Position numbers and translations under genes: made by a program
The notes under the pieces: generated by a model
What the model was told of the DNA's origin: nothing
Database searches by the model: none
The model's input: only the letters and a program-made list of their open reading frames with translations
NCBI GenBank assembly: GCA_963575745.1
Contig: CAUYUJ010000270.1
Location: 62,001 to 126,000 of the forward strand
Origin: Prorocentrum cordatum
Lineage: Eukaryota
DNA length: 64,000 nucleotides
Direction: 5' to 3'
Shown: positions 481 to 64,000 of the stretch, piece by piece
Position numbering within the stretch: the stretch's first letter is position 1
Layout of the letters: the number at the start of each line of letters is the position of its first letter

Positions 481-641
481 TCTGACACACCTGGAATGAA
501 TACGGGAAAGAATTGTACGATGCCCCAAAGCAAGTGTTGTCCAAAACCGACAGCGCCCGCTGTTGGGCAGCGGCCCGTGGTCCCAAATGGACAACTGACA
601 ACGTCCGCGAACCGATCGCACCGATCATTTTCCCGTGGAGC

Positions 642-1046: not shown

Positions 1047-1927
1047 GGTAATGGGGAGCAGAGAAAGCACACATGACCCATCCTTCGGGGATTGACGAAA
1101 CTGTCCCTGGCCCACGGTGTTCCAAGTTTTTCGCTCCATGTTGGAGCCCCATGGGGCCCTCCGAATCCTGGCAGGAAGGGATTGAGACGGGGGGGGAGGG
1201 GCAGGGGCGAAGGCGAGGGAGGAAGAGAAGGGAGAAAAAGGAGAAGGCGGAGGTGGACCCAGACCATCGACGACCAGAGTTGTCCGAGAGTCAGCGGCCC
1301 CTGGAATTTTCGCCGCTTCCCTGGAGACCAGCATTTCGTCCAACATCGTCCTTGATGGTCACGGCGCCCGACGGGGGCCTCCAGACGCCGAACACGGCGA
1401 ACATCCTCTGTCGCAGTTTCGGCTCGAGCAGAAAGAGCTGGGCCACAAGCGTCACCCAAGGGCTTCAAAGGTGCGTCCTGGCGAGAACTTCGAGGCGGTC
1501 GCCGGGCGGGAGGGGCCCCGGCAGACCAGCAAGGGCGAAATAGCCTCGAGGTCCCGTTCCTCCAGGACCCCCGTTTGCTGCGTTCTTCCAAGAGCGCGCA
1601 AGAGCGTCAATCTTCGATCATCGATGGACGGGGCGTCTACTCTCTACCTCGCCGATCCCCGGCTGCCCGATCCTCTGGCACAGATCGGTGCACATGCCTC
1701 CGTGGCCAAACCAAGGGGGCGCACAAACCGATCCTAGGCGCAGGGAAGGACCCAGCCAGGATCGGCAAACATGAGTGTAGATGACGTGCCCCAAATGTTC
1801 GGGATCCCCAAACGGTGCGGTGGCAGAGCGTGCGGTGACCTCGGGATCCCAAGTGGCCGTAGCGCACGGACGATTGGCCCTGCGCTGAGCCCGCTTCGAA
1901 ATACGTTCCACCCAAAAGACTGGCTTC

Positions 1928-14047: not shown

Positions 14048-14624
14048 GGAGGAAGGAGGAGGAGGGGTTTTCGACATGCACCGCAGCAAGGCGCCACCAC
14101 CATGCAGCTGGGCTGGGTAGCGTGGCGCGAGGAGCTCCCGCTCCAGAGTCGCGAAAGCGAAAGACTGGAGCGGAGAGCAGGCGACAGCGCCAGCAACGAG
14201 CCCACGCGGCTTCCGCAAGTTGAGAGAGGAAGACCATCAATCCAAAAAGCCGACAATCCACCCAAAAAGCTCACGGGCACAGTGCAGCCATCGTGCTGGA
14301 CAGGATGGTCACCCTCGGCCGCTTCGGGTGGCGGCATTTCAAAAGCTTGGCCCAGGCGTCTGGTGTCCTGGGAGTGCCGTCCTTGTTGACAGGAGGGCCG
14401 AAAGAGGAGGAGGGGAGAAGATAGGAGAGGAGAGGAGAGAAGCGGAGGAACGGGAACGCGGAGCGACCCTGATTCGAAACGAAGACCCAAGACCACAGGA
14501 TGGTTGGATGGTTGGTACAAAAATCGGCGCCTGCGGCGGGCTTCTTCCGAGGCTCGCAGACTGCCGACGACCCCGCCGCCCCCTCACTCTTCTCCTGAAG
14601 ATCGCTCCCTCTCTGCTCCCCACG

Positions 14625-14780
14625 GGTGAGCACCTGCCGGCCGTCAGGCGAGGCCACGGCGCTCTTCACGGGCGCCGCGTGCCCCCGCAGCGACTGCACG
14701 CACCGCCCGGACCCGAGGTCCCAGAGCCTCCCCTGCGCGTCCGCGCAGGCACAGAGCACGTGCAGAGGCGGGGTCACCAC
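14625..14780 (-). CDS. Exon 3 of UBL/WD40 gene (VVTPPLHVLCACADAQGRLWDLGSGRCVQSLRGHAAPVKSAVASPDGRQVLT)
   Basis: Acceptor CAG|GTG at 14782-14781. Clear WD40 motif (LWD...L.GH...V.S...SPDG). The 3' boundary is ambiguous (14624/14625) because of the TIR-bounded interruption. Confidence 0.85.
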
Positions 14781-15259
14781 CTGCGTGGGCGAGCCGGCGG
14801 AACCGACCCACGGCGACGACGACGCCAACGACGACGACGACGACGACGACGTCGGCGACGACGACGGCGACGACGACGACACCGGCGACGGCCACGACAA
14901 CGACGACGACGACGACGACGAGGTCCCAAGTCCACCGAGCACCGCCTGGACGCCAGATCCCAGGGCCTCCCCTGCGCGTCCGGCCAGGCACGGAGGGCGC
15001 GCGGAGGTCACCATCCAGTCCGTCGTTGCTGAGGTTCGAGGATCGAGGTTTCTTGCCTCAGGGGTGCAGTAGGTACGTACGATTAGAAATCTTGCAATCA
15101 GAAATCTGGGGGCAAGTTCTTCGTTGATCCCTGGGGCTATCGGAGGACAAAAATTGTTCGAGGAAAACTTGCTGGCAGGCCGGATTTTGTTATCCGATGT
15201 GCCTGCTTTTGAAGGGGGTCGTCGTCGCCGTCCCCGTCGCTGTCGCCGCGGCGTGGTCG

Positions 15260-15720
15260 TCGCAAATTTAACCTGCCGCAGATGAGCAATGCGTGTAGCG
15301 TAGGGCGTGGCCCTCTCCTCATAGATTGCGCGCCGTGGGAGGGATACAATTCGGGCAAAGGGAAAAGGAGGTTGCCGAGCAGGCTGAGCTTCCTGTAGGG
15401 GCAAGATCCGTGTGAGGGTGTGCCAACATGGGCAGGGAAGCGCAAGGACACGATCCGTCTGAGAGGTGTGCCGAAATGGGCGGAAGGACCGCATGCGGGC
15501 GCCCTCGCTGGTGCCGAAGGTGGGTTCCCCCTAACTGTGGTGCGCAATACGTGTGAGGGGTGTGCAGAAATGGGCGAAAGGACCTCAGACCGCACGCGCG
15601 CCCTCACTGGTGCCGTAGCTGCAACTCCCAATGAAGCACGATCCGCTTGAAGGGGTGTACCAAAATGAAGAGAAAGACTACGTGCGGGCGCCGTGACTGC
15701 TTCCGTAGGTGGCGCTCCCT
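15260..15720 (-). repeat. Dispersed intronic repeat, homologue of 60-480
   Basis: Reverse complement shares GGAGAGGGCCAC.CCCTACGCTACACGCA and CATTTCGGCACACC with 60-480. Confidence 0.65.
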
Positions 15721-16119: not shown

Positions 16120-17383
16120 GAGCCACGACAACGATCTCGCTGACAACGGACGACGGACGACGATGACAACGACGACGAGAAGGTGCCATGAAATGCCCGC
16201 GAGCCCAGAGCCGTGCCCGCAAACGGCGGGATCACAACCTAGTGGCGCCCTGGTTAGAGCGAGACCCAAACCACCCTCGATACCTGATCGGAAGACTTTC
16301 AGATGGTCTCCGGGAGACCGTCGAAAGGTCTCCAGACGCCTCCGGGGACCTCCGCGGAGGGGCTCCAGACTGGGGGCCTGGAAGTGGACCCGTCAGACCT
16401 GGAGCCGAGCCGACCCGAGATGGACCTGACGCGAGCCGAATCGGCCCGCCAGCCGAGAACGCGACGACGGCGACGGCGACGGCAACGGTAATCGCGACGA
16501 CGAAGACGATCACGATTGCGACAACGACCCCTCTCACAGCTCGACCCCGGCCAGGTCTTCGAATGGTATCCTGCCGTGACGACGGGGAGCCTCCTGGAGG
16601 CTCCGCAATGACAGGCCTCGGACCTCGATGCTCGGACGACGATCCGCGCGGCGATCTGGGCCGAACTGGGCGGGCCCTCCCAGGGACAACCTCGACGATG
16701 ACAACGGTGTTGACGAGGCCGACGAGGACGTTGACGCTGCTTTTGACGTTGACATTGACGCTCACGGTCGACGACGACGGCGAAGACGACGTCGTCACTC
16801 ACGACGACGACGATGACGGCGACGATGACGACGGCATTGACGACGCCGACGACGTCGATGTCGACGCTGCCCTCGACGCTGACCTTGACGAAGACGCTGA
16901 TGCAAGACGACAGGACCGATGAGCAATGGAGATGGTGGCGCCGACGACGACGGACCACGACGGACCAAGCGGCGAGCCCAGGCGGCGCCTTCGGCGGCCA
17001 TCGGCGGCCCCGAGAGGTCGGTTTGCTACATGGGTCGGTCGGCGTTCGGACCATCATACGGGCATTCGGCGGCCGTTTAGGACAGTTCTAGCATTAGGTC
17101 GGGCATGCCCCCCCACAGGCGAATTTTGGACGAAAAATGCAATATACAAAAAAATATCAAAAAATTGCCAACAAAGATTCGACAATTCGTCGCCATACTA
17201 TTTTCTAACTGTTTTTGAATATTCCTCCTGTAGAGGGACAGGCCCGACTTAATTCTAGCACCTCAAGAACGCCCTCGGCGAGGTGCATCTGCTGGAAAGC
17301 ATTCCGATGCGAACTAAACAAACAAAACACTTCCGAAAACTTCGGCGGATTTACGCGGCCACCGTCCGCCCTGAGCGGCGCCA

Positions 17384-17414
<31 letters not shown>

Positions 17415-18510
17415 AGACGACGACGAAGACGACGGCGACGGTGACGGCGACGACGGTGACGCCGCGGCGACGGCGATCTGCGACGCCGCGGCGGCGTGCC
17501 CTCCAGCGTGAGCGCCGCGCCCGCGGACGCCCCGAGCTCGGCGAGGGTCGTGCCCTCCCGCAGCTCGGCGCCGCCGAGCAGCAACGACCTGGCGACGACG
17601 ACGACGACGGCTCAAGATTGCCCAATATAGCTTCCCGCATGCCTCCAAGCGGCGCCAAGATGGCTCGAAATAGCAACGGAGCCTCCCAAGGACACCCCCG
17701 TCCGTCAGCGGCGGCGGCGGCGACGGCGGTGACGACGTGGGCGTTGGCGTTGCGACGCCGTTGACGGCGACGACGGCGTTGACGTTGACGACAAGGGCGC
17801 TGACGTTGACGACGACGACGGCGATGAAAACGACGACGAGAACAAAGACGACGACAAAGACGACGACGACGACGACCGAGGCGATGAGGTCTCTTGGCAA
17901 CCTCCGCGGAGGTCGCCGGAAGGCTGGACAAGCCGCCAAAAAACCTCGATCCTCGATCCTCGATCTTTGATCGGCGACGACCCAAACCTCTGACGTCGTG
18001 GGTTCTCTCAAGGCGTGGTCCCCAAGCTCTCGACCCCTTCATTGGGACCGGATTTTAACCCCGATAACAGCTTCTGGCCCCCGAGTTTTCGACTCCTTCA
18101 AAGGGCCCTGTGCCCAGAAATGGCCCTCGGCAGGACGCCGGAAGATGCGAAAGACATCCCTCGGCGGCAGCGGTGGCGACGACGGCCTGTGACCCTTCCA
18201 TAGCGGGTGGGCGGAACACTTTCCTCGCGGATCGATCATTGACGGTCCTTGGTCCCGCAAGCGCCCTCCCCACCCCCAGGGGCGGAAATAGAGGACAACT
18301 GCTCACAGAGAACAGACTACCACGTCGGGGGTTTGATACGGCGACGAAGGCGAAGATGACGACAACACCAAAAACCTTGAATATTCGATGTTCGACCCTC
18401 GGACGACGACGAAGACGACGACGACGGCGACGACGATGGCAGAGACGACGGCGAGGACGACGGCGAAGACGACGACGACGACGAGGACGACGAGGACGAC
18501 GACGACGGCG
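16120..18510. repeat. Degenerate (GAC)n/(GTC)n microsatellite field with TCGATCC(TCGA) motifs, surrounding exon 2
   Basis: Many GACGAC tracts (16460-16960, 17385-17480, 17590-17880, 18400-18510). Similar tracts lie at 14810-14920, 20230-20480 and 48330-48875. Confidence 0.85.
17504..17588 (-). CDS. Exon 2 of UBL/WD40 gene (C-terminal half of ubiquitin-like domain: SLLLGGAELREGTTLAELGASAGAALTL)
   Basis: Acceptor CAG|G at 17590-17589, donor CTG|GA at 17503-17502 (GA donor, known in dinoflagellates). The LLLGG.EL....TLAELG......LTLVV pattern is ubiquitin-like once joined to exon 3. Confidence 0.8.
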
Positions 18511-32329: not shown

Positions 32330-33850
32330 TAGCGCGTCCCCTTGACACGTCCCGCGGTGCGTCCCCTATGGCACATCCCCTGGCACGTCGCCTGGCGCGT
32401 CCCTCGGGACGTTCTGCGGCGCGTCCTCCTGGCATGTCCCCTCTCAATTAGGTTTGGGGCAGCTCCTATGTGCTCGGGCAGCCCGAGCGAAAAAATCCGG
32501 ATCAGTTCGGTCAGGACTCGGATGCAAAGGAGGACTCGGTCCACAACTCTATAGAGCACAATTGCGGCATGGCACATCGCAACTCTGCACGGCGCAGCAC
32601 AGCACAGCCCTTGGCACGATACATCAAGATCGATACCCTCAACATGGCAACCTGGCACGTTCTGTGGCACGTTCCGTGGCGCGTCCCGTGGCGAGTCCCC
32701 ATGGCACGTCACGCGACACGTCCATTGGCACGTCCCGTGGCATGTCCCGTAGCGCGTCCCCTTGACACGGGCGCGTCCTTCGGGTCGTTCCACGGCGCGT
32801 CCCCCTGGCATATCCCCCGTGTCCCCTTGATACTTAGCTTTGGGGCAGCTCCTATGTGCAGAGACAGCACGAGCTTAGGATCCAGATCAGTTCGGTCAGG
32901 ACTCGGATGCACAGGAGGACTCGACCTACAACGCTATAGAGCACAATCGCGGCATGACACATCGCAACTCTGCACGGCGCAGCACAGCACAGCCCTTGGC
33001 ACGATACATCAAGATCGATACACTCAACATGGCAACCTGGCACGTTCTGTGGCACGCTCCGTGGCGCGTCCCGTGGCGAGTCCCCATGGCACGTCACGCG
33101 ACACGTCCATTGGCACGTCCATTGGCATGTCCTGTAGCGCGTCCCCTTGGCACTGGTGCGTCCTTTGGGTTGTTCCACGGCGCGTCCCCCTGGCATATCA
33201 CCCTGTCACTTAGCTTTGGGACAGCTCCTGTGTGCAGAGACAGCTCGAGCTTAAGATCCAGATAAGTTCGGTCAGGACTCGGATGCACAGGAGGACTCGA
33301 CCTACAACGCTATAGAGCACAATCGCGGCATGACACATCGCAACTCTGCACGGCGCAACACAGCACAGCCCTTGGCACGATACATCCCGATACATCAAGA
33401 TCGATACATTCAACATGGCAACCTGGCACGTTCTGTGGCGCGTCCCGTGGCGAGTCCGCATGGCACGTCGCGCGGCGCGTCCCCTGGCGCGTCCCGTGGC
33501 ACGTCCATTGGCACGTTCCGTAGCGCGTCCCCTTGGCACGTCCCGCGGTGCGTCCCCATGGCACGTCCACTGGCATGACCCCTTGCGCGTCCCTTGGGAC
33601 GTTCCTCGGCGCGTCCCCCTGGCGTGCCCCCCTGTCAAGTAGCCCTGGGGCAGCTACCATGTGCTCAGAGAGCTCGAGCTTAAGATCCAGATCAATTCGG
33701 TCAGGACTCGGATGCAAAGGAGGACTCGATCCACAACGCTATAGAACACAATCGCGGCACAGCACATCGCAGTTCAATACGGCGCAGCACAGCACAACCC
33801 TTGGCACGATACGTCAAACTCGATACACCCAACATTGCAATTGCCCGTCG
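32330..33850. repeat. Tandem array of four ~380-430-bp units with TGGCACGTCC sub-repeats
   Basis: TTCGGTCAGGACTCGGATGCA.AGGAGGACTCG recurs at ~32505, ~32890, ~33267 and ~33696. Confidence 0.9.
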
Positions 33851-44859: not shown

Positions 44860-45872
44860 CAAGCAAAAGCACAAGCAAAGGCAAACGTGAATGCAAAACA
44901 CGAAGGCAAAGCAAAAGCAAAAGCACAGCATAGCATAGCAAAGCATAGCATAACGCAGCATAACATAGCGCAGCATAGCATGGCATAGCATAGCCTAGCC
45001 TAGCCTAGCCCAGCATAGCATTGCGTAGCATAGCATAGCAAAGCAGAGCAGAGCAGACCAGAGCATAGTATTGCATCGCGCAGCACAGCATCCACTATTG
45101 TGGGGAGGTTGTGGTCACACCACTCTGGTGAAACCGCACATTCCAGCTCCGATGATGCCCGCCGAAACAATGCTGAACAGCTTGTTGCACCGATCTGGGA
45201 GTTGCTGCTGCTGTACAGTTTCGTAGGAACGTTCGGTGTAGCAAGTGTTGCACAACCTTGCTCAATGCCAAGTCGTGCGGTGTAGGCGGGATCCGGAGCA
45301 TTCTCAAGCACACCCGGTGAGCGAATGCAGAAACATGCGTGTGTGTGTCTGTGCGCAAGCAGAGCAAAAGCAAAACCAAGCAACAACACAAACAAAAGCA
45401 AAGCAAAAGCAACAGCAATAGCAATAGCAAAAGCAAAAGCAAAGGCAAAAGCAAAGGCAAGCAACAACAAAACCAATGCGAAACTGTAGATGTAGATGTA
45501 GATGTAGATGTAGGTGTAGGTGTAGATGTGGATGTCGGTGTAGATGTAGATGTAGATGACGATAAAGATGTGGGTGCAGATGTAGGTGTTGATGTAGGTG
45601 TAGATGTGAGTCTCGCTGTTGATGTAGATGTAGATGTAGATGCAGGTGTAGATGTAGATGTAGCTGTAGATGTAGGTCTAGATGTCTATGTAGGTGCCGA
45701 TGTACATGTAGGTGTAGATGTGGATGTAGATGTAACGAACTCCCCAGTGCCCCGCCCTCATCTCCGTGCCAGCTTGCTTTTGCTGCTGTCTCGGCGACTT
45801 GCTGCCTGCTTCTGCTGCTGCTTCACTTACGGCGTGGCGTCGGCGTTTCTGGCGCTACTGCTACTACTACTC

Positions 45873-45910
<38 letters not shown>

Positions 45911-45958
45911 GCTACTACTGCTACTACTGCTACTACTGCGCTACTGCTACTACTACTC

Positions 45959-45996
<38 letters not shown>

Positions 45997-46024
45997 GCTA
46001 CTACTGCTACTACTGCTACTACTG

Positions 46025-46064
<40 letters not shown>

Positions 46065-46135
46065 GACTACTACGACTACTACTACTACTACTACGACTAC
46101 TACGACGACTACGACTACTAAGACTACTACTACTA

Positions 46136-46182
<47 letters not shown>

Positions 46183-46206
46183 ACTACTACTACTACTACT
46201 CCTGCT
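44860..46206. repeat. Compound microsatellites (GCAAAA)n, (GCATA)n, (GTAGAT)n, (CTA)n
   Basis: 44860-45065, 45355-45470, 45486-45733, 45855-46206. Confidence 0.9.
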
Positions 46207-46306
46207 NNNNNNNNNNNNNNNNNNNNNNNNNNNNNNNNNNNNNNNNNNNNNNNNNNNNNNNNNNNNNNNNNNNNNNNNNNNNNNNNNNNNNNNNNNNNNN
46301 NNNNNN
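46207..46306. other. Assembly gap (100 N)
   Basis: Run of N between (CTA)n and (CCT)n. Adjacency across the gap is not guaranteed. Confidence 0.99.
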
Positions 46307-47110
46307 TCCTCCTCCTCCTCCTCCTCCTCCTCCTCCTCCTCCGTCCCCCGTCCTCCTCCCCCTCCTCTTCGTCATGATTATCCTTCTCCTCCTCTCTTCC
46401 TCGTCCTACTCCTCCCCGCGCTCTCGCCTTTACGGGTGTCTGAAAGCCAGGACGGCCAGAGAAGACCACCAAACCAGCCGGACCCGGCCCAAAAGGGCCT
46501 GGAGACGCATCGAAGATGGCTCCAAGAGGGCCCTCCTCCTTTTCCTCCTCCTCCTCTCCCTCCTTCTCCTCCTCCTGAAAAATCCTTATCCGCCTCCTCC
46601 ACCTCCTCCTCCTCCTCCTTCTCTTCATCCTCCTCCTTCCTTCATATGCCCGCAAAAGGCCTCCAGAAAGCCCCACAAATGCTCCAAGAAGCCACAGAGA
46701 GATCGCAACAGCCCCCCCAAATAACCCACCAAGGCCTTTAACAGGTCCCCCAAAAAGCCCTACAACATACCCAGCAGAATTCCGAAATGTCTCGTCGTCG
46801 TCCTCGTCCTCCTCCTGATCCATCTCCTACTCCTCCTCCTCTTCCTCCTCCTCCTCCTGCTCCTCCTCCTCCTCCTCCTCCTTTTCGTCGTCGACGTCCT
46901 GCGGTCCTCCCCTTCCTCCTCCTCCTCCTCCTCCTCCTCCTCATTCTCCTCCTCATCCTCCTCCTTCTCCTCCTCCTCCTCCTCCTCCTCCTCCTCCTAC
47001 CGCTCCTCCTCCTACCGCTCCTCTTTCTCCTTCTCCTCCTCCTCCTCCTTATCCTCATCCGCCCCCATCCCTCTCCCCGCCCCCTTCATCCCTCCATTCC
47101 CCCTCCTCAT
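46307..47110. repeat. (CCT)n microsatellite field
   Basis: Direct reading. Similar tracts at 21950-22070, 42120-42430 and 47500-47900. Confidence 0.9.
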
Positions 47111-48370
47111 GCCGCGGCACTCCCGACCAAAGCACACTGGCGGGTAGGACCGACAGATTCCTGTGACACCGACCCCGTCGGCGTGTGTGAGGGCTTCTCT
47201 GGTCGGGTCGTCGTCTCTGTCGTCTCCTCGTCGTCTCCGTCGTCATCACAGTCGTCTCGTCGCCGACTCCGTCGTCCCCCCTGTCTTTGCCCTGAGCCCT
47301 ACTCCTCGAGCGTGCTATCTAAAGCGAAAATAAACAACATCGTTAGTGGAGACGACTGGAAGCCCCTTTCCCTTCAATCCCTTCCCCGCGAGGAGAGGGG
47401 TCCGGAGAGGGCCCGGGGGAGGGTCCCCGAAGGAGGTCGCCCGCATACGTCTCCCCCTTGCGCGATCCCGAGCCCCATCCCCCCCCTCCTCCTCCCTCAT
47501 CCGCCTCCTCCACCCTTTCTCCTCCTCCCACTCCTCCACTTCTTCCTCCCCCCCCCTCGATTTCATCTTCGTCGTCTTCAGGGTCGGCGGCACCGGCCGT
47601 AAGGCCTTCGCAATATGCAGCGGCTTCGCGGGTGCAGCGCAGTTCCTTTCCAAAGCGGGGCTGTCGCTTGGTACTTCCTGGGACTTTTGAGCCCCACAAG
47701 ACGAAGCTCCCGCCCGACTTGCGGGCCAATGGGGCGTTCGTCTTTCAAGGGGGGCGCTCCGCGCCGTGAGAAGGAACGTTTGTAGGGACTCATGAGGCGG
47801 GGACTTGGGACGGGAAGGTGCTTTGCAACATCGTTGATGCATCCTGTGTTTACTCTGGCTCTATTCTTCCTCCTCCTCCTCCTCCTGCTCCCTCCATTCC
47901 TCCCTTTCATCCTCTTCATCCTTGTCTCAAGGATGGGGCGGCACGGTGAGCTCTTACCTCATGCAGGATCCTTCTCTGGAGGACCAACCACCGCATCAAC
48001 AAACATGTCGCTGAGGTCCGCGCTGATTTCTTGGATCGGCGCTGGATCCCCCTCGATGGCGCGCGGAGCGCACAAAGGGCGGTGCCAGAGGCGCCGCCAG
48101 AGGGGCCCAACGCCGATCCAAGGAACCCGCGAGGACCTCAAAAAGAGATTATGTTTATGCTGTTTTTGGTTCTTCGATCCTCCTTCTCCTCCTCCTTAGT
48201 CTAATGCGCCATGGGAGGCCGAGAGGAAGGCAGCGGGCGAGGGGGGTGCAGGTGTGCCGCAGCGGGGGGGGGCTCCTGCAGCGCCGCGGCCACGACCGCC
48301 AGCTGCTCCCAGACGGCGGCCTCCAGCTGTCGTCGTCGCACCCGCCGTCGCCGTCGCCGTCGTCTCCGCG

Positions 48371-51400: not shown

Positions 51401-52809
51401 AGCCCGGGTCGGCGGAAAGTATGAGACGGCCACACGTGGTTCCCAAACCTGGGTCAGCCAGAGGGGATTGGCTGACCCCCTCTAGCGCCGACCTCCGCCC
51501 CAAAGGAAGGCATATACGCAGATCCCAGGCCCAGGACTGGCATGACCACGACCGGTGCGAGTGTAGAGTTGGCGGCCCCAGTCTGCACCCAGACCTCCGA
51601 CGTTCGACTTTGTCCTTGCAGTGGGCCTGGAGCCCCAGACCCCATCCGCGGGGCCATTTTTTGTCGCCGCGGGTGTTTGTCGATTGTCCGACATCTATCA
51701 ACGAACGCAGGTCCTGCTTTTTCGCGACGCCCGAGGGTCTGGGGAGCGGCAGGCCCGGGGCCTGGGGGCCTGACGCCGCGGCGTGAGGTCTGAGGATCTG
51801 GAGATGAAGAGGCCTTGTGTCTGAAGGTGACGGCCTGTCGGTCTGAGGCCTGAGGGCGAGCAGGAAACCTCAGGATGATAATGATGCCTTGACTGGATTG
51901 GCTCAGGATGCGTCCCAAGCTTTCCTAAATACGTATCTAGCGGCCCTCGGCTTTTGGAACCGGTGCGGAACAGCAGGAAACCTTGCACATCTGGGATGTA
52001 TTGGAACAGCGAACGGCGAACAGCAGTCAACACTCTGTCAGCACGCAATTCATCCCGTTCCTCTTCCCGCAGGGAGCTCCAGACGGCCCCGGCGGAGGCG
52101 TCCAAATAGCGACCCCGCGCCCACTTCGGCACGCCACTCCTGCGTTTCCTGTCGCGGGGAAGGGGCCGCCTGCGCGGCAATGTCGGCACCCCCTGCAACG
52201 TTTCCTGCCACCGCGCAGGGATGAGGGAAAACTCTGCGCAAAACCGCACACGCGCGCACATCGCCGGACAAACCCAATACATGGTTATGGGGCTACGGGC
52301 TATAGCGCCAGTCTCGCTGGAACCTACGCACAACCAGACGTTTATACGCAAGTCCGCGCGATGTGACTAGCGAACGACCGCCGCCTTCAGCCGCGCGAAA
52401 AAACTCCAATAGAAAAAAAACATGTAAACACCGACGTCAAACGCGACGTCCAACAATGTAAAGAAAACCTACCAAACACGTACACTCATGTTGTATCCCT
52501 CGAAGTTCTGACGGGAAAACAATGCAGGGGACGGTTTCGATTGCGATGCCACACAACGCAGGCGTCAGGCGTCAACATGAGCACTTACTCGTGCACCGGA
52601 CGCTGTCAGCTCAACAGGGAGCTACGCGCGACACCCCGAAAACGGCGTGACACACACACACACCCACACACACACGCAACCGATACACTCGCGGTCGGCA
52701 TCCACACGGGACAATGCGCTACGAACAAAGCAGGCGCGCGCGGCGGGTACCCCGCGCGAGCGCGGGTCACCCGGCATCCGCCCAGCAACCCCGACCCGAT
52801 CGAATCTTT

Positions 52810-53295
52810 TACGAACACGACACGGACTGTATAGGCTCGTATACACAGTCGGTGCGGAACCTACAAGATCCTATACAGAGTTGGTGCGGGCTGTATAGGA
52901 CCCTGCACAGATCCGACACGGGCCGTATAAGATCCTGTACAGAACCGATACGAACTGTATAGGTCGTATACAGATCTGACACGTGCTGTGTAGGATCCTG
53001 TACAGAGCCGACACGGACTGTATAGGCTCGTATACAAATCCGATATGGGGTGCGCAGAATCCAGATATGGGATGCACACACCAATGCGGACTCTAGAGGA
53101 CCTTATCCAAAGCCGATATGGACTCGATCGGACCCTATACAAAACCAACACGGTATGCATAGGATCCCATACATATCGGGCACGATCAGTGCAAAACCCT
53201 ATAGATATTCAATATGGACGGCATAGGATCCTCTACAGATCCGGTACGGAGTGTATAAGATCCTGTACATATCTGGTACGGACTTTATAAAATCA
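52810..53295. repeat. AT-richer minisatellite (ACACGGACTGTATAGG..CGTATACA/GATCCTGTACAGA)
   Basis: GACACGGACTGTATAGGCTCGTATACA at ~52819 and ~53010, with shorter internal periodicity. Confidence 0.8.
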
Positions 53296-56200
53296 TACAA
53301 ACGGGCAGAGGCGCCCGTCCTTCAAAAGCCAGCCGCCAAGACCACCGCCGGGGGCGCCACAACAGGCCTGGTCTGTGGTATCGGTTTGGATGCTATGCAA
53401 CGACAGATATACCCTGAGATCCGATGTCACGAGAAACATCATACATAAGAACCCAGCCGCAGCCATGGACCCAATATTCCTACTGCATGTTTAAAGCCCG
53501 ATCGATCCCTGAAGCTCCCTGGATCTGAAGCACGGCAAAATCGCCCGTCGTGAAAATGGCGACGTCAGGATCTCAGTGGACCCCCCCGCTCGATCCACCT
53601 GCCAACGCTCATTGAACAACGTCTCGAAGTGCGACCCTGCGCGACCGAGACAAGAAGGCGATGCGCGCCTCCGCCCCCCCAAAAACTGCTCGCGCTGTCG
53701 CCTCGCGGGGCTCGCCCCTCTGCTGACTGTCGCAACCTTGGCAGAGAGCCGCCCACCCGCGAAAGGCACCTATACATCTACACCATCATGCCTGGCCTTG
53801 GCCGTCCTCTGGGCCCCAGGTGCACACACCCTCCTGGCCTCGACCAGGAGGTATTCACCAGCCTCTGGCCCAGGGTGGTCCTAGCTGGGCACAGTGGTGG
53901 TGCGTGGATGCCTTGTGCGGACCCTCAGGGTTGTGCTGCGCGCCCCAGGAAAATCGTCACTGACGACCGCAGCTCCATCGCATGGTGTCACCCAGGGGAG
54001 GACGAGCGTGCTCCCGATTTCGCTCCAGCTCCTGCTCCCTTTTCTGCTGCTCCTGATCCTCCCTCTCATGCTGCTGTCCTCCTTGTCTTGCTCAGCATGT
54101 CTGAACCGCCTCCCAATCGTTCTCCTGATCCTCGTCCTCCTCGCGCGCTCTCCTCCCTTGCCGGCATCCTCCTAGAATCCGTAAAGTCGCTGTTCCTGTC
54201 TCTCCCTACGCCTCCTCCTCCCCGCCCGCCTCCTCCCCCTCCTCCGCCTGCTCCTCCGCCTCTTCCGCCTCTTCACCCTCCTTCTTCCAGCTTGCCAGGG
54301 GGGGGCGAAGAAGACGAGCACGGGGAACCGCGCACACAGGCGGGACGGCCTGAGCACTATGCCGAAAGGCCTGCCGTTCGGGTCCATGGCGTGTCTTGGC
54401 GCCCCCCTGTACCCGACGCTCCCCGCTTGACCCCACGTGGCCCCCCTATGCGCGGGACATCCAGAAGACGGACAAGAAGGATGAGCAGCAGATCCCAGGG
54501 CCCACAGAAGGCAAGGTTACGTATCTTCATAATGTTTCGCTTGCGCTCAGGTTGAAGAGGTGACCACCGCCCTTCCGTGTTGAATTTGAGGCATCACCAA
54601 CGACAAGGTTCGAGGCATGCTCGCGCGCGAAGATCCCATTACGCAGAATATTGTTATCCACCGGCATGATCATATGGAGCTCCGCCGCGTCAGCCGAAGA
54701 CGACAGAACCAAAAACAGCATAGGTAGGGAGCCCATGAGGAATAACATCAACGGCCCCCATCAACCCTACCCTGGCGCCCAACCACCGCGATTGGAGCGC
54801 GCCTACGCAAACCGCACGCACGCGGTACACGGGGACCAGGCAGTCCCGCCACACACCGACAGCCCCATCGCCCTGTCCACAGAAAGTCCCCAACCCGCAT
54901 CTGCGCATGGATTCACACTATCTAAATGAACGAGCTCCATGCACCGACGTAGTCGGCCAATAAGGAAATACCCCTTTTATAAGATATCCGATGCTGATTG
55001 CACATCTTTGCATGTCGCTGCGCTGCACCGGCTCGTGGAAATAAAGCTTTGAATGTTTTCCCAGGAAGGCGAAAAGCGCACCCACAGCGCCCTGGGGGGC
55101 GTGCAAGTAATGATGCCTTGCGCGCCTTGTCGCAAGGAGCTTGGCTCCTTCAAGGCCCGATCAACGTTGGAAAACAATGTCGATGCATGGATTCCCATCC
55201 CCGAACCATTTCGCTTGGGCGAGAAATGCCTTCGAAGGAGGGCGCACCGCGGGCTTCTGGGTGGGACCCCAGTGCGAGGTCTCGGGTTCCAGGGCAACGC
55301 CCCGAAGACCTCTTCGAGCCCCAGGGGCTCGTTGGGGGAAGGGGGGCCGCTCGCAGAGAGAGGAAAAGGAGATAGAAATCGGCGATTGGCTGCTGAGCAC
55401 GACAATATACCTTTCCTTGTCAACCTCGGCGAATTGCGGCTGCTGGAGCTGGCCTTCCTTCGATCACGGTCAGAGGCGAAGGAAGCTTGGCTCGGCCAGA
55501 GCTTGTGGGGGGGGGCTTTCCCCAAGCCCACGCTGTTGCTCGCCATTCACCTGAACTCCTTGTACTGGGCTGTTCAAGGATCTAGGGGCGGGGGGCTTTA
55601 CTGCCACAGGCCTGGGGCCCACTAGATTTTGAAAGGGTCGGAGGGGGACGACGAGAGGCAGACCACAAGGTCGAAAAGCGTATCCCCCTTGCAGTGTTCC
55701 CGTGCCGCGAAGGCGTTATTGGAGGAGTTCTCAAAGTGCGCACGCTTGTCCGATTGCGTCCGTCGACGGTTTGCTACAGGTGGACTTCTCTCAGTTTGGG
55801 ACCCCCTTGGACCAATGATGGATCGGGCAGATGGGAGCGCGCCGCGCCAGGAGATAACGGATCCAGGTGGCAAGCCAAAACTTTAACAGGCCCGTGCTGC
55901 GGGGAGGTCTCGCCCCCCCCGCTACCTTCCGCCCGGGTTCCCCAAGGTATTGGGGTCCTGCTCCTGGCTCGGGTCGGCTGCACGTAAGAGTGACCCCGGT
56001 GATCTTTGGTGCGCGGTCTGCCGACCATTGCATGGGATGATTCAGAGCGGCCCGTGTGCTTGGACTTCGCCCCCCCCGCCCCCCCCCCCCCACGCCGGGC
56101 GCCCTTGCCGCCCCTTGCTCCTTCAACTTATGATGCTGAAACTACGCAGCTCCAATACAACAAGGATGGGGGGCGTGCGGCTTTCAAACTAGAGCCCTCG

Positions 56201-59200
56201 CCGTAGCGCCACGCACACTGACCCTAAAAACTTGCAATAGTTACAAGGATGGAAAGTCTTTCCTCTGAGAATCGGGGTAAGATGACAAAGGAACTAAGGT
56301 CTCGTGTTGACTCTGCTCAGTAGTAGAGGATACGGGATGAGACATCGATGAAACCACAAGTAACCGTTAAGCAACTGTACTCAGGAATGGGAAGTGAGGA
56401 GGCTGGCAGGCCGACGACACGACAACGACGAGGGAACGACCCCTCGGCGCGCGCGTGCAAGCCCGCACGCTCCTTTTCTATCCTGTGAGCACAGACAGCT
56501 GCGGTGCAGTGCCGCAGAGTCAAGGTGTGGCAAGGCAGGCAGCGAGTGGCAAGCGCAGTAAGAGGCGGAGAGGAGCATATTTACTCCCCCCGCGGCGGGC
56601 TTCGTTGGGCCCATCCAGCCACAGCTCGCCTGGCCTGTACATATATACAGCCATCGGAGCGAATCCAAAAAGCGTTTTACCGCTCGACGGTGGTTGCCAG
56701 GGAGCTGAGGGCCGAAGAAACCCGGAGATTCCCACCAACAGTTAAATAACGTATCTCTGCCGATGCGACTTTGTCGCTCAGTTGAGCCCGCGGCGACTTG
56801 GTCGCCCGGGTTCTGCCTGCTCTCACTTCTTGTTCCAAAGGTATCCCCGCGATGGCGGAGGCGGAGGTCTCGGATGCGAAGATGACGAGCCCCCCGTCTG
56901 ATCCGCGGCCCAATAGGGCGAACGTGACCTGCATCCCTTGCCACGGCCAGCGTAGGGCGCTGACCCGTTGTCCTTGTCCTTGTTCTTGCTCTTGGAACCC
57001 TTTCCTTTTCTCGGAAAGCGGTAGTTGTAGTCATTCAGGTACACAGTATGCCACGCGCGTGACTGGTCCTCCCTGGGGCCCATCCAGGATATCACGTCCC
57101 GGTGAACCCAATATCCATCCAGTACATCATTTGTGTAGTGCGGGTAATGCACCGAGAGGTCGTAGCAGCCCCGCGCCCGGCATCCATGGCTCCGCCGCGC
57201 GCGCGCGTCGGCCTCGACCCATCCCGCGTGTCCCTGTCAGACGAATACCATGAGTGCTCATCTCCTGCCGCGGCGGTTTGACCGCTGGCAGAGTAAGGAG
57301 ATTCACTAACGTCGTCATGGGCCCGATCGTCTTGGACGTCGGGTCTGCGTGGAGAAGGTGGCGGATCGGGGCGATCAGCTGTTCTGGGCCTCGCTTTCGC
57401 CAAAGCAGGTCCCTCCGTATCGGCTTGGCCGTCGGATGGCCCATCAGCGCCTCCACTCCCACGAACACTCATCGCCTTTTGCTTTCTAGCACATCTAATA
57501 ATATCCCTCGCGGCAGTAGCAGCGAAAATGCCGAACTTGCCGCAGGCGCCACGAAAGCGGCCTTCATCTTTATCTTGGAGCCCAGTGGCTTCCACGAATG
57601 GGTATAGCCAATAAATAGCTTCTTGCAGCTTCATGCCTTGACGACGGATATCGGCACGAGACTGTTTGCCCAAGTTACGGGCCCATTCCTCAATGAGGTC
57701 GTCTGTCTCAATCGCCACGCGAATGCGGCAATCAAGGGCGCATGCATCCGCTCGACGCTTGTCATCGTCGTACTCTGCGCCGGTGCCGGCGGCAAGAAAG
57801 CGAGCCCCAGGGTATGCGATGTAATGTCCCTCGGAGATGAAGCAACTAATGATCTCGCGGACAATCGCAATCACGAGAATAATGAGACCCAACTCCAATT
57901 CTGGAACAGGAATCTCCCAGTTCCATCCATTGGTGGTCCGCGCGCCGTCTGGAACATCGTGCGTTATTTCGCCCGACAATCGTAACCTATCAGGTTCATT
58001 TGTGTCCGGGCGATAGCTGGTGTACTCCATGACGTACTGAGCCGACACATCTTTGGCTCCGTCCTCGGTCAACGTGATGCTCAACGATCTGTCTTCGCGA
58101 TGAGAGTTGGGCTGATCAAGATCGATCCTCCCGTCAATCATCTGCTCGGTCTTGGACACGCAGACTGCAGTGAAATCAAGGATCATGTCTACGTTCTCCT
58201 CACCCGCCGTCACGGATGGACCGGCGGCAGGTTTGTCATGCTTGCACACTGATATGAGAGGGTGTTCAGAACATATTATGTTACGCCTGCTGACGGACTG
58301 AGAAGCACGACGAGGACGTGCCACAAAATTATTTGCCCAAGCAACCGGTGGACGTCCGCGAAGGCTGGGCCCTGAGACGTCCATATCGTTGCCCTGGGCA
58401 ACGGGCAGCCAGGGCGCTGTTCCATCTTCTGCGTCTTGCAGTGTCCGAAGCGTTGGCACGAAGATATTGGCATTACTCATGTTGCGCTCCCATTCGAACC
58501 AACCCTCGAAAGGTACAAAGCGTGCGCCAGGTTCCTCTGGCCACTCAAAACAGCCAGAGCGAGACAAGACATGGGACGTGCATACTGGTCAATATCTATT
58601 GCCCAAAGTAAGGGCCACCACTCTGTGATCGTTGGAGCCTGAGTTGCCTGTCTCTCAGCCAAGTGCGCGAGCCATTTAATGAATCGCCTCTTCAGAGGTT
58701 CAAGGTACTGAAAGAAAGGACCGTGACGCGCCGGCGGCTGGGCCGCGGCGCGGTCAGGAATCCAGGCAGGAACACCACCCGGGCGGCTGTTTCCAAAGGT
58801 CTGACCCGAAGCAGCCAAGCGAATATAATGATTATTCGTTGCCCACTTGCGCTCCAGCTGCAGATTGATGTTGATGTTGTAAACTACATCAGCCGAAGCT
58901 CTCCGTTGTCTATTTACTCGCACGCCAACATAACGATCACGCTCATGAGGGACGGTATCAACGCCGATAACGTGCGACAGAATGCCATTGTTCCAAAGCG
59001 AAGTTGAAATGGTCCTGCGTCGGTATGACTGAAGCAAATAATCGTGGGCAACCTTGTACTTATACTTGATCGGATTACTGCAAGAGGGGCAATGGCCAAA
59101 GCCAGTTCGCACCCAATACCAGTTAGCGCAGAGGAACCGACCGTCGTCCTCCCAGGGGACAGACTGAATAAAAACTGCTGTCTCTGGAGGCAACGGAGGC

Positions 59201-59379
59201 CCATAATCTGGGCGCAAAGACAAAGTCTCGTCAGTATGAATCCAGCCGAGCATCGAGGCGTTATCAAAATTTACCTCATACGATGTCCACTCTTGACTGA
59301 ATTGACCAAGACATTCGCTTGTCTCTGCTATCCAACCAGTCGTTGACTTTGGCGAGGGTGACGGGTTTGTCGATATCAG

Positions 59380-60190
59380 TGAACCTCGGCACCTCACGGG
59401 ACACAAGGGTCCCGTCCTGGCAGATCCGGTACGACAAACGGGTGAGCACTCGGCCATTGAAAACAAGAGCCAACGGCCAGGATTCTCTGTGAGTCGGGGG
59501 CTGGTCCCACAGACGGACTGTGTCCACTGCGGGCCATGCTCCGATCGACGGTGGCTCCCCTGGCTGCGGGTCACTGCCCGTGGCCTCGTGCTTCCGCACA
59601 CGAGCAGGCTCGCCATGCCTCCGCTGGCTTAGCCGCGAAGGAAGATGATCTAGGCCTCGCATGCTCGGATCCTTCTTGGTCGGGAGAAGCCTCAACAAGT
59701 CGTAGTCCGCCTCGAGGCAAAGCCCCGCGTCTCTTTTTGGGAACTTAACTTCTCCGACCATGGATTCCACCAGTGTCTCCATATTGGTGATATGGAGGAG
59801 GGGCCCATGACACCTGGCTATGCCAGGGTCATAAGGCGCACGCATTCTTTCAATTGAAGCAACAAAAGTGGAATGTCCCTGACATGCTCTGTAGAAAACT
59901 GGAATGGGAGAGAACATCCTCTCCCTTGAGAGGGCCAAGATTTGTAGTCACGCCACATTGTATAAACGGTCGTCTCCTTGATGGTGGCGCTGTTGTCAGG
60001 GAGCACTCCGAGGACCTCAGCAGTCCCCGGCTGCAACGCGGCTAGGCCGTGTGCAGCAAGTGCATATAATGTCTGATACCCAAATCCATCCTCGGTCATC
60101 TTCTCAACCGGGTCTCCAAAGTAGACCCAGCCTCCCGAAGACCTCGCGTAATCAGAACAATGCCTCGCGAGATACGTCGCGCAATCTCCG
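59380..60190 (-). pseudogene. Tpt1/KptA-like RNA 2'-phosphotransferase domain, split by a frameshift near 59938
   Basis: Motifs in canonical order: YLARH...GGWVYFGDPV (~60175-60110), FYRACQGHS (~59900-59870), LLHIT (~59795), MRGLDHL (~59660), DGTLVSREVP (~59415). Compare the Tpt1 motifs LRH, GW, IRAxQGHS, LYHGT, RxHVH, NGVWL..VP. Confidence 0.7.
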
Positions 60191-62759
60191 ACGCGTTGAG
60201 CGAACTCGTCTACTCGGCAACTTTGAGGTCGCCAAAAATCCGCACTGCCTAGGGCAGCCGGATTATTGCGATCAGTGACCCCAACAACCAATGGGGTCAA
60301 AAACTTAAAAGACTGAGGGTCAAATCCGCTGGGAATATCATCGGAGTCCAACTCAGCACGGAGAAGCTCTCGCACCTGATCGAAAGTGCCCTCCTCTATG
60401 AAAAGTTCGCTCAACAGTACAAATATGGGATCTTCAACGAATTCTGCAATGTATTTGAGCGTACTATTCGACATATTGCGAATGGCCTCGGCCCGCGGGG
60501 GCACTGGACCAGTAGTGTGGGCCTCTCGAACCCTCCGCCTTCGAACGGAGGGCGTGCGCTGAATAATTCGAGTGTTTTCATCCGGCGGAATATAGAGCTC
60601 TCTGCCCTTAAAGCGGGCAGCGTGCCCGACATTAATCTCCTGGTCATCCTCTTGGGGTGGAGCATCCGTCGGTTTACGCTGTCGCTTACCGGGGGCAGGC
60701 GGCAGCCTGTCTCTGCAGAAGAAGTTGGCAGAGGCTGGGCCAGATCGGTAATGCTCTTCCTCAATGGGAATGAGCTCAGGGTCCGCTTCATACGGGAAGC
60801 CACTGATTTGGGTAAGATCAGGACTGGCCTCAAGGGGACCCGCCGCGCCTGGGGCGCCCGGGGTTCGATCCACAGAGGGGGGCTCCGCCGCGTTATCTCC
60901 ACTTGAAGCGGCAACTGGCGGCGGTGCCGTAGCAGCGGGTTCATCCTCCTCATCAGAAGACCCCGGCCTGGTAGGAGAAGACTCGGCAACCTCGCAAGGC
61001 GCAGCGCGTGAAGCAGCCGCAGCGCCCGAGTCGACCATCATATTGTCTTCCTGCGCCGGTTTGGCCTCCGCTCTGGCTGGGCCAGGCGGAGGCGCAGGCA
61101 AGCTCGCCGTCGCGGCTGGGCCGGGCGGCGGCGCAGGGGGACGATGAAGTTTGCTTCCACTCGCGACAGATTCGCCCTCAGCGCGTGGCTTTGAACGTTT
61201 GCTCTTGGCGGCGATCACAGGAGTAGGAACAAAATCTGGTGCCGCCTTATGGATCTGCTCAACACCGACGGTTGCAAACTTCTTCCATGATTCCGAGTAT
61301 GTTCCAGGCTCGTGTTTCCCATTTATCTTCGCCTTCTCGTAGATCCTCTTTGCTGCGCTAATATACTCTTCAATATCTCGCAAATCCTCGGGACATTCGG
61401 CCTCTGGCGGCCAGTCAGCAACAGTGCGGCGCCGCTGGTAAAAGAAATCTTTCTCTTTCCTCAGTGCTCTACGCGCTTGCCTGCCGTTGAAGTGCGCATT
61501 GGAGATCCCCCTGAGAGTTCGGAGAATGAGGTTTGCAGCGTCGGACCCCCATGGTTGCGGTGACTCCTCTGACGAAAAATCTCCATCCGTCTGCTTCGGA
61601 ACAGATGCCGCAGGAGTCTCCGGCCTCTCACTGCCTCCGTGGCGATCAGAGCTCACATCCTCGGCAGTCTTGGCTTCTGTCTCAACTGCCGCTGCCTTTG
61701 CGACGGAGCTCTCCGCCTTCGCAGTCTGGCCCGTCCCAGCGCTGCCTTGGGCAGGCTGGGGAGATCCCAAGTCTCGGCGCCACTGAGGCGCTGCTTTGGG
61801 CGTGGCCTCAGCTTTCTGATGGCTATGGTCAGCTCGCGACGATCGATCAAAATTCCACCTGTTAAGCTGGAGAGGAAGCTGGGGATCGCGAAGACTCGGT
61901 GCCCAAGGCTTAGGCGGGCCTTCCGCTGTCTCCGCGCCCCCCGGCCTGGCCGGTGGCTGTGCGACTTTAAATGCAGAAAGATCATCAGCTCCAGTATCTA
62001 GGCGCGCCATCTTGGCAGGCGGAAGCTTCGGCGCACGCACCTCTGGACTCGGACGAGGTGGAGGCGGAGGCTTCTTCGGCACGCGTTCCCTCTGCTCTGG
62101 TGACGGTGCGTCCTTCGTCGGCGCGACGTTCGGCTTCGCGACCGGCGGCGGCGCCGTCGCATCGGGTGGCGAAGGTTTATTCGGCACCTCGCTTGCTGAT
62201 CCAACTGGTGACGGCCCCTCCCTCGGGGGGGGAGGAGGCATATATACATTTTCGCAAGTGCATCGGCTTTGGGAAGTGGAGGCCACGCCTCCGCCACGGC
62301 CTTGCCGGGCGGAGACTTGGGCGCTCTCCCAGCCTGGGAAACAGGCTGTCCCAAAGGTGGGAAATCTTCGGTGCCAAGCGAAAATGATGCGCCGGACGGC
62401 TGAGCCGTCGGCTCCTGCTGCTGATCACCCGTCGACGATTTGGCTTTGGCCTCCTCTTCACTATCCCGGGCGAGCGTCTTGGGCGCCTCCGAAGCCTCGT
62501 CTTTGTGCAACGGATTGATCTTAGTGAGCCTGACTCCTTTCTTCTGGAGCCATGGCCAAATATCATCGAACTTACCATCGTTCTCAAAGTGAGGCTGCGA
62601 TCTTTCTGCCGAACGATGGGCCCCAAATTTGGGGCCCACTGGCTCTGGGCCTCCCGGACTTGGTCCGCGGCGTCCTCCCTTGCTTTGGCGCGATATCGTT
62701 CGACCCCGAAGTCTTGCTCCAAGGGCCATTCATTTTGTCGAGCGACATGTTGCAAGAAG

Positions 62760-63200
62760 ACATAAGCATTCGTAACATGAAGCGCCGCAGGAGTCCAATG
62801 GTAGAGGCGAAGCTCATACAATACCATCTCCAATGGTTCGCTGACGAACTGATCTGGGTTCCCCTTGATGATTGTGGGCTTTGAATAGAAAACGATCTCC
62901 GCAGTTGCCCAGATGCCGTCTCCAAAAGTCTCTTCTGCAACAGAATATGTTGCATGAGTGGAAGGATTGTTGGTGCACGGAAAAGAATACACACCAACTT
63001 TATGCTGCTTGATACTCCCTCCATATTGAGGATTGGATGTAAGCAACTGACGGCTCTCCAAAATCGAATGGAGGGCGGTCGCGGACGTGCCGTGATTCCG
63101 TCTGGTCCAGCCTAAGGATGGGTCTTGGACCTCCCCAAGCTTTTCGTCCGTTACATAGAAGGGCAAAGTAAGCTGAACGCAGTGATTGATGCCCGCCCTG
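62760..63200 (-). CDS. PARP-like ADP-ribosyltransferase-fold domain within the polyprotein
   Basis: NHGTSATALHSILESRQL...KVGVYSF......HATYS...WATAEIVF matches the HGT / GVY / Y spacing of H-Y-E clade ART domains. Confidence 0.6.
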
Positions 63201-64000
63201 TGGGTCGTCGTTGACAACTTCGCCGAATTCAGGCGATCAGCAACAGTGAGCTTTGGGTCCGCACATGATCGATCGGCCTTAATCACAAAGAAACGTGCCC
63301 AATTGGGAACCACATAATTAGGTTCTAAGACTGGGGTCTTCGCGGGCTTCTGCAGCATCTGCAAGCCCAACCACGCCTCGCCATTTGCTTTCTTTGAATC
63401 ATGTTGAACTGTTTACTGCGAGCCGGGTTTTCCCCTTGTGCCACTCGTACAACGCGGCCTTCCTCCCCCAGGTACTCATTCATTGGCATCATGCGTCTAT
63501 AGAGCTCACCGCTCGCTACAGTGAATGGTCGGGGGAAATCGTAAGGAACTGGTTCCTTGTCGGACGCGATTTTGCAAGGCAGCTTCTGAATTTTCTGGCA
63601 TGCCAAATGCGCAGGCCAATCTTGTTCCCAGTCTTCAGGGCGATCAGGATCGCCACCTAACCTCAGGCGCCGCGGGAACTTAAACTTTTGGCTGAGCTTG
63701 GTTGCTTGGCCAACAGAGCATTTCATGCGGAGAGCTTCCTCCGCTGCTTCACCAAGTGCCTCAGCATCCTGAACGCCCTTTGCAGGGGCCAGAACGGGTC
63801 CGCGGGACGGCTGGGCCGCGCGCGCTACAGTAACATCACCCGAGGCGGCTGGGCCGCTCGGTGCAACAACAAGTGCTGCCTTCTTCAACTCATCAACTGC
63901 CGGGCGCATGCGCTCATCATTTTGCACCCCTTCGGTTGGCAATCGAAGGCGTTCCCCCCTTGGGGGCATTCCCGGACAACAGGGCTGACCACGCAGCAAG

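Follow-up and report, generated by a model that had tools for sequence, protein, structure and literature searches.

The DNA considered here is a stretch of 64,000 nucleotides (nt) from Prorocentrum cordatum (GCA_963575745.1, contig CAUYUJ010000270.1, positions 62,001 to 126,000 of the forward strand), which at its full length is called the window. Between 56.3 and 64.0 kb, its minus strand is on balance best read as the 3' 7.7 kb of one degraded copy of a selfish repeat that is free of introns, occurs in high copy number and carries a strongly diverged Tpt1/KptA relative. The repeat is probably a large transposable element, a classification favoured by its copy number, its decay, the spread of divergence among copies and the sharpness of its 3' boundary. 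It continues beyond 64000 at its other end, where the reading frame is still open; the 5' part of the element lies there, and the negative domain results given below cover the visible 7.2 kb.

The repetitive nature of the locus became apparent from contigs of a public DNA run (X1), in which a fifth of the sampled words occur, that were aligned to positions 52000-64000 at ≥80% identity. In total, 6,341 contigs were counted on 56.0-64.0 kb, with 295 of them at ≥99%, 681 at 95-99%, 2516 at 90-95% and 2849 below 90% identity, while the flanks were near-bare. The summed depth, an uncalibrated contig-based value and not a copy number, amounted to 63-699 per 400-nt bin throughout 56010-64000 (180-192 in the bins of 63228-64000), to 0-4.6 in flanking bins other than simple repeats and to 0 across 55208-56009. 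Two further runs of the same study from other organisms (X2, X3) covered simple repeats only. Thousands of short, diverged contigs restricted to the element are the pattern of a large, old repeat family. According to the X1 depth, the 3' end of the element is located between ~56010 and 56410, the bin of the same coordinates including a G/C run which draws unrelated contigs. Variant sites at 56404, 56464 and 56547 were each found in 6-19 X1 contigs. The original prediction had placed the feature at 56800..64000; its tiling reading frames fill this span, but the repeat reaches lower, to at least ~56345-56410. Near the apparent 3' end, a G-run of ~25 nt is present on the minus strand (56067-56104), with TGTAA ~150 nt upstream of the run.

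At the protein level, the frame at 59276-59947 gave 20 near-length relatives, of which 18 carry the eukprot label Pyramimonas sp., the other 2 originating from ENA assemblies. A 22-member family profile searched against 1.84 billion cluster representatives (clusters at 50% identity) identified 103 with E ≤ 1e-3; of these, 66 reached ≤ 1e-10 and 21 reached ≤ 1e-30. With few exceptions, they are fragments of 60-405 amino acids (aa). The origin of 10 representatives was examined and revealed 7 from ENA, 2 from JGI/IMG and 1 from eukprot, on contigs of 605-2306 nt. Relatives from metagenomes and eukprot are frameshifted or fragmentary themselves, with P0122 (591 aa) and P0123 (377 aa), both from metagenomes, as examples of intact members. 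Two scans of JGI metagenome contigs detected no relatives, and neither blastn nor tblastx found a second copy inside the window. The 6,341 contigs together with the 103 representatives support the existence of many diverged copies. A spliced host gene present in single copy, the outcome which would have spoken against the original prediction, is thus not what the locus represents.

At least seven stop-to-stop open reading frames (ORFs, standard code) overlap end to end on the minus strand, from the window edge at 64000 down to 56823 (Table 1). As the window has ~60% G+C and long chance ORFs are frequent on both strands, ORF length by itself is weak proof in such GC-rich DNA. Still, the frames are coding and more than chance, since protein relatives of 48-89% identity, which exist for three of them, are colinear on the window DNA without intron-like gaps (tblastn, 121 proteins). 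For instance, P0001 (298 aa), one of these relatives, is 70% identical over 296 aa to the frame at 57092-58588 and colinear with 58186-57314. The intron-free tiling over more than 7 kb described beforehand thus holds. The C-terminal region of the frame at 57092-58588 has no family match in Pfam, NCBIfam, PHROGs or PADLOC, and an Rfam scan of the window gave no match at gathering thresholds. Within the last frame, the KGKG motif of the tail was located at 56970-57011.

The window copy is broken and frameshifted relative to its family, because several relatives read straight through the junctions, although part of the frameshifts could be assembly errors. Frame changes had been noticed before, and the comparison agrees, with 12, 10 and 1 relatives crossing the three junctions listed in Table 1 with a change of frame. 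The site at 59917-59944 is read through by P0008, P0009, P0010 and P0020. In other X1 copies, small insertions follow 59298 and 59299, and 58550, where the frame 57092-58588 joins the preceding one, is followed by an additional G. Indels also occur at 63248/63250, at or near an ORF junction. Moreover, the 36 listed window-private substitutions, a small, tool-selected sample out of ~1,560 sites, are distributed over codon positions 1/2/3 as 12/10/14 and comprise 21 non-synonymous and 15 synonymous changes, a pattern that fits neutral decay of this copy.

The Tpt1-like domain named in the original prediction withstood scrutiny as a remote homology, at a profile-profile probability of 91-94%, but not as a match to Pfam PTS_2-RNA. 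An alignment of 115 family sequences was compared by hhalign with a KptA alignment of 24 sequences, consisting of E. coli kptA and 23 proteobacterial genes found via PF01885. With P0023 as the master sequence, the comparison reached a probability of 94.2% (E 1.1e-7, score 58) over 172 columns and KptA positions 1-176, and with P0122 a probability of 91.4% (E 9e-7) over KptA 1-182. As controls, the template scored 10.7-12.6 when reversed and 9.9-19.8 in 20 versions with shuffled columns, all with a probability of ≤0.8%. The RAxQGHS segment of the family aligns to IRAvQGHS of KptA. Likewise, when a KptA hidden Markov model was run over 123 family proteins and 704 window ORFs, 33 family proteins outranked the first unrelated ORF (top family match E 5.6e-4), with the segments of the N-terminal lobe (N-lobe) and QGHS being colinear and in register. 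Divergent relatives are more Tpt1-like than the window copy, featuring SLRHD..NTGGWASV, IRVGVGHSV and LHGAVLH. Remote homology supports the assignment of this domain to the Tpt1/KptA superfamily, as a new clade that has diverged strongly.

The motifs cited for the locus were all recovered at their places. In the Tpt1-like domain these are, on the minus strand, YLARH (60160-60174), GGWVY (60121-60135), FYRACQGHS (59870-59896), RCHGPLLHIT (59786-59815) and RICQDGTLVSREVP (59387-59428). Conservation was determined among the family members covering each site. Arg and His of the Arg-His motif are kept in 16/26 and 25/26 sequences, the residues of GGW in 21/23, 21/23 and 20/23, and those of the His-Gly motif in 35/49 and 44/49. 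For RAxQGHS, the counts are 38/46 (Arg), 34/45 (Gln), 40/45 (Gly), 33/45 (His) and 32/43 (Ser). The window copy has three aligned residues of the catalytic tetrad, namely Arg, His and the Arg of RAxQGHS, and the Arg of LLRLLP (38/49; absent from the divergent subfamily) is one candidate for the fourth. LLHIT, listed among the Tpt1-like motifs in the original prediction, is probably not the counterpart of the Tpt1 HGT motif, which hhalign sets on the adjacent CHGP.

An AlphaFold2 model of P0023 based on the family alignment is confident in the N-terminal half, with a predicted local distance difference test (pLDDT) of ~85-96 for residues 1-235. A Foldseek search of this fold against the PDB returned nothing at E ≤ 1e-3, with KptA/Tpt1 structures at ranks 2, 3, 9 and 36 (E 1.6-4). 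When the Foldseek rows were re-examined, the top 6 were all KptA/Tpt1. Tpt1/KptA chains matched the folded N-lobe best, at modest Z values of 5.3-5.9, and the sequence identity was 22% to Tpt1 N-lobes vs 3-17% for the other winged helix-turn-helix (wHTH) rows. The modelled N-lobe is thus a winged helix nearest to that of Tpt1, and an NAD+ lobe would follow by descent and motifs. The claim of Tpt1 homology rests on the profile-profile comparison.

Several results weigh against this assignment. The NAD-binding C-terminal lobe (C-lobe; P0023 residues 240-398) was modelled with a pLDDT below 50, the first tetrad Arg is replaced in 10/26 sequences, and the fourth catalytic Arg was not placed with confidence. 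The hhalign probability dropped to 20% (E 1e-3) with P0123 as the master, which is without the LRH/GGW part. PF01885 matched neither 7 window ORFs (E ≤ 0.1) nor 22 family members (E ≤ 1), 17 representatives (E ≤ 0.1) or P0122/P0123 (E ≤ 10), and a PDB sequence search with the family profiles A2 and A3 found nothing at E ≤ 10. The NCBIfam model NF002012 (RNA 2'-phosphotransferase) matched P0123 residues 219-270 at E 0.023 and 14.5 bits vs a cut-off of 233, which is probably chance since the model's N-lobe positions 9-60 are involved, out of register with hhalign. These residues of P0123 correspond to ~59300-59470 of the window. In addition, PDB sequence searches with single ORFs and profile A4 gave nothing relevant at E ≤ 10, a search of the ESM Atlas with P0008 gave no usable neighbour, and hhalign of the family alignment A3 against single E. 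coli KptA aligned just the 15-column QGHS motif at a probability of 4%.

The likeness to Tpt1 could be no more than what any winged helix shows, together with a short motif that arose by chance, with no ADP-ribosyltransferase (ART) fold at all. The unfolded C-lobe, the variable first catalytic Arg and the silence of Pfam, PDB and HMMER database searches suit this explanation, which is nevertheless unlikely. The hhalign score of 58 contrasts with 10-20 for 22 reversed or shuffled controls and includes both lobes in order, LRH..GGW and RAxQGHS are in register and colinear in HMMER, too, and the N-lobe identity given above is higher for Tpt1 than for other wHTH rows. Besides, the N-lobe resembles that of Tpt1 most in those members that have diverged furthest (SLRHD..GGW).

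With regard to the class of the element, its mobility would follow from copy number as the single line of evidence. This counts against the transposable element, as do the uncalibrated depths and two negative results: the visible 7.2 kb contains no reverse transcriptase, integrase, transposase, helicase, capsid or polymerase domain (Pfam, NCBIfam, PHROGs, PADLOC), and no terminal repeats resembling long terminal or terminal inverted repeats occur in 55000-64000, where the only repeats were two paired C-runs and a weak inverted pair of 29 nt. An expanded host gene family with many pseudogenes, e.g., a conflict or immunity family with variable enzymatic heads amplified by duplication, is one alternative. 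It would account for a visible part without transposition enzyme or terminal repeat, and ART-carrying selfish or host-amplified genes do exist in eukaryotes (PMC12957317). Nevertheless, thousands of contigs ranging from <80 to >99% identity in coding and 3' non-coding parts alike, relatives in metagenomes and eukprot that are frameshifted or fragmentary, and a depth falling to 0 below ~56010, which resembles an insertion boundary, render it quite improbable. About equally improbable is the endogenised virus suggested in the original prediction, i.e., an integrated and amplified polyprotein gene of a KptA-bearing RNA virus or a large DNA virus. It would suit a long frame that is free of introns and combines several unrelated domains, and a protein mostly without cellular family match. 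However, IMG/VR (4 scans with three ORFs and with A5, reaching close relatives only) contained no relative, a BFVD structural search gave nothing at E ≤ 1e-3, PHROGs had no match, and no polymerase, helicase, protease or capsid domain occurs in the 7.2 kb. Moreover, diverged contig fragments numbering in the thousands within a single genome are better explained by a transposing element than by viral insertions.

Table 1. Features of the repeat copy at the right-hand end of the window and the data on which each is based (P numbers, protein relatives; X1, public DNA run).
Positions	Strand	Feature	Basis
63325-63999	-	Frame 1, open at its 5' end, runs upstream past the window	P0022 residues 1-33 match 63489-63391, then frame switch
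63391-63394	-	Frame switch relative to P0022	tblastn
62177-63412	-	411-aa frame	One relative (P0022), 62% identity over 254 aa
62636-63394	-	Conserved HGT..GVYSF domain, candidate PARP-like ART	P0022, 62% over 254 aa
61998-62729	-	Additional third frame, coding-looking at 62640-62250	ORF translations
60700-62635	-	Low-complexity linker rich in Pro/Ala/Lys, at least one extra frame change	Translations; X1 depth 63-204 per bin
59818-62424	-	868-aa frame	ORF list
60231-60684	-	Helical domain preceding the Tpt1-like module, conserved	P0050, P0023, P0112, P0103 and P0073 match 60684-60142
59926-60230	-	Tpt1/KptA-like N-lobe, winged helix with ARH and GGW motifs	
59380-59925	-	Tpt1/KptA-like C-lobe candidate with RACQGHS, HG, LLRLLP, SQRR and DGTLVS.EVP; frame differs from that of the N-lobe here	
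59917-59944	-	Frame change 1, within the Tpt1-like domain	12 relatives: tblastn pieces in frame -2 above, -1 below
59276-59947	-	223-aa frame	20 relatives, 48-89% identity
59295-59305	-	Frame change 2, directly after the Tpt1-like domain	10 relatives switch from -1 to -2 at 59300/59301
58477-59628	-	383-aa frame	ORF list
59080-59130	-	C-x13-(H)CPxC (C..W...G.HCPSC), possible zinc knuckle or ribbon	
57092-58588	-	498-aa frame, conserved C-terminal region	P0001 match
56823-57236	-	Last frame, 137 aa, tail rich in Lys/Gly; stop codon 56823-56825	
56345-56822	-	Non-coding 3' part of the repeat	X1 depth 556 in bin 56411-56811

The upstream HGT..GVYSF domain (NHGTS at 63083-63097 and VGVYSF at 62981-62998, minus strand) had been proposed as a PARP-like ART, which was not confirmed. 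Neither PF00644 nor, with the ORF or a 2-sequence profile as the query, any PARP among PDB sequences matched it at E ≤ 10, and an AlphaFold2 model from the 2 sequences reached a mean pLDDT of 30. PF00644 was detected in 0/401 proteobacterial genomes and 0/14 controls. Candidates for an H-Y-E triad were assigned by eye, with His in NHGTS, Tyr in GVYSF and Glu in AEIVFY or LYELRLY; the sole relative, P0022, has Gly in place of the LYELRLY Glu. A search by ESM features, as a lead only, listed three PARP catalytic clusters (0.92, 0.90 and 0.90), which ranked behind unnamed clusters of 0.93-0.94. The PARP-like identity, drawn from motifs and this one language-model lead, is thus unproven. The domain was also considered as a second, more decayed Tpt1-like unit, which was rejected since the hhalign score of 22.2 against KptA was matched by 1/30 shuffles and is not significant; the comparison with the family's own Tpt1-like domain gave an hhalign probability of 0.2%. 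In the pairing by hhalign, HRAGINHCV and NHGTSATALHSIL of the domain are set on IRAxQGHS and HGT..sI of KptA.

Between the linker and the Tpt1-like module, the helical domain is modelled confidently in its P0023 equivalent (residues 1-125, pLDDT 85-97); it has no convincing match among solved structures and none in the family libraries. The Cys motif downstream of the module is kept in P0031 (CPEC), P0123 (CPVC) and P0047 (CPSC), and its match to zf-dskA_traR is weak (E 0.019, in P0047 only).

Elsewhere in the window, a WD40 repeat ORF at 351-1358 (minus strand, E 1.9e-30), probably an exon of a host gene, is the sole real-looking Pfam match at E ≤ 0.001 among 140 other ORFs of ≥150 aa. Sub-threshold matches were found at 14274-15530 to Beta-prop_WDR3_1st (20.1 bits vs a cut-off of 154) and at 17317-18054 to DUF6350 (22.1 vs 30.8). 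Positions 32394-33540 harbour three repeats of a 385-nt unit (87% matches) between arrays of the 12-nt TGGCACGTCCCG. Dense microsatellites occupy 44900-48000, i.e., (AGCAT)34, (TGTAGA)42, (CTA)116 and (TCC)86, and the GC skew at 46001-48000 is strongly negative (-0.41). Just upstream of the flank and apparently separate from the element, satellite-like tandem repeats of 32/64 nt at 52802-53300 are multi-copy in X1, with bin 52802-53202 reaching a depth of 160. At 54005-54405, a low-complexity stretch resembling (CCT)n, with a summed depth of 35,334 in X1 and 4,180 in X3, represents a shared simple repeat outside the element.

Among known systems, the domain most closely resembles cellular Tpt1/KptA/TRPT1 enzymes (PF01885, PTS_2-RNA), with which it shares a winged-helix lobe with Arg-His and Gly-Trp, followed by an Arg-x-x-Gln-Gly-His-Ser strand and His-Gly, besides the profile-profile probability of 91-94% and the best structural matches of the N-lobe. 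The cellular enzymes are stand-alone proteins of 180-230 aa, whereas here ~280 aa with insertions are part of a high-copy repeat's reading frame, which exceeds 2,400 codons. In contrast to them, the family stays under all Pfam, NCBIfam and PDB sequence thresholds, and its first Arg is variable. A Tpt1/KptA-type domain within a very long protein of a selfish entity is likewise described for viral polyproteins (PMC9503650); their carriers are free viruses with recognisable replicases, whereas the present element occurs in hundreds or more genomic DNA copies and shows no viral hallmark in its visible part. AACRNL, a Crinkler-like selfish gene amplified in teleost genomes, provides another parallel of an ART-superfamily enzyme on a selfishly amplified eukaryotic element; its ART is diphtheria-toxin-like and protein-modifying, spreads via flanking hAT transposons and is without a Tpt1-type wHTH lobe (PMC12957317). 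Polyvalent proteins with ART domains in phages and conjugative elements are mentioned in PMC9503650. They are similar as giant multi-domain proteins of mobile elements that combine nucleic acid and NAD+ enzymes. These are prokaryotic, and as no PHROGs or PADLOC match was found here, the resemblance is conceptual only.

In the known reactions of Tpt1/KptA, a 2'-PO4 is removed or a 5'-phosphate is ADP-ribosylated (PMC6333775, PMC12678800). Intact relatives of the window copy encode one very long protein, the putative polyprotein of the original prediction, whose Tpt1-like module, about two thirds along the visible part, comprises a winged-helix lobe for nucleic acid binding followed by the motifs of an NAD+ lobe. 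The winged-helix lobe of intact copies may hold either a 2'-phosphate or an RNA or DNA end that is phosphorylated, and this phosphate would attack NAD+ as the donor of ADP-ribose. The outcome would be either the removal of a 2'-PO4 that remains after RNA has been broken and ligated or the capping of a 5'-phosphate with ADP-ribose. For a selfish element, the likeliest benefit in both cases would be that its own nucleic acid is healed or shielded. Catalytic activity, substrate and life-cycle role of the module are, like mobility, what we infer from these data. For comparison, KptA is embedded in the polyproteins of two positive-strand RNA viruses, where it was proposed by Iyer et al. to heal or process RNA ends, KptA being rare in eukaryotic viruses (PMC9503650). 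It is doubtful, but conceivable, that the repeat represents a class of giant mobile elements (>8 kb) with one long protein that has not been described before, in which a neofunctionalised, NAD+-consuming Tpt1/KptA, possibly together with a second ART-like domain upstream, caps the element's own RNA or DNA ends with ADP-ribose or heals them in the course of replication, or blunts RNA-cleaving defences of the host.

If true, a Tpt1 carried by a transposon would be seen here for the first time; as judged from titles and abstracts, the literature searched had no report of Tpt1/KptA on a transposon. Tpt1/KptA is a small housekeeping or repair enzyme whose roles apart from tRNA, e.g., 5'-phosphate ADP-ribosylation, await a biological context. 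Moreover, the family is a sizeable, unannotated one, comprising >100 clusters (50% identity) in marine data, which was missed by curated models, and it is useful for repeat annotation in prasinophyte genomes and marine eukaryotic metagenomes. If kept across an old selfish family, the Tpt1-like module would stand for a genetic parasite which brings its own NAD+-dependent end-processing enzyme, in parallel to the rare KptA domains in RNA-virus polyproteins.

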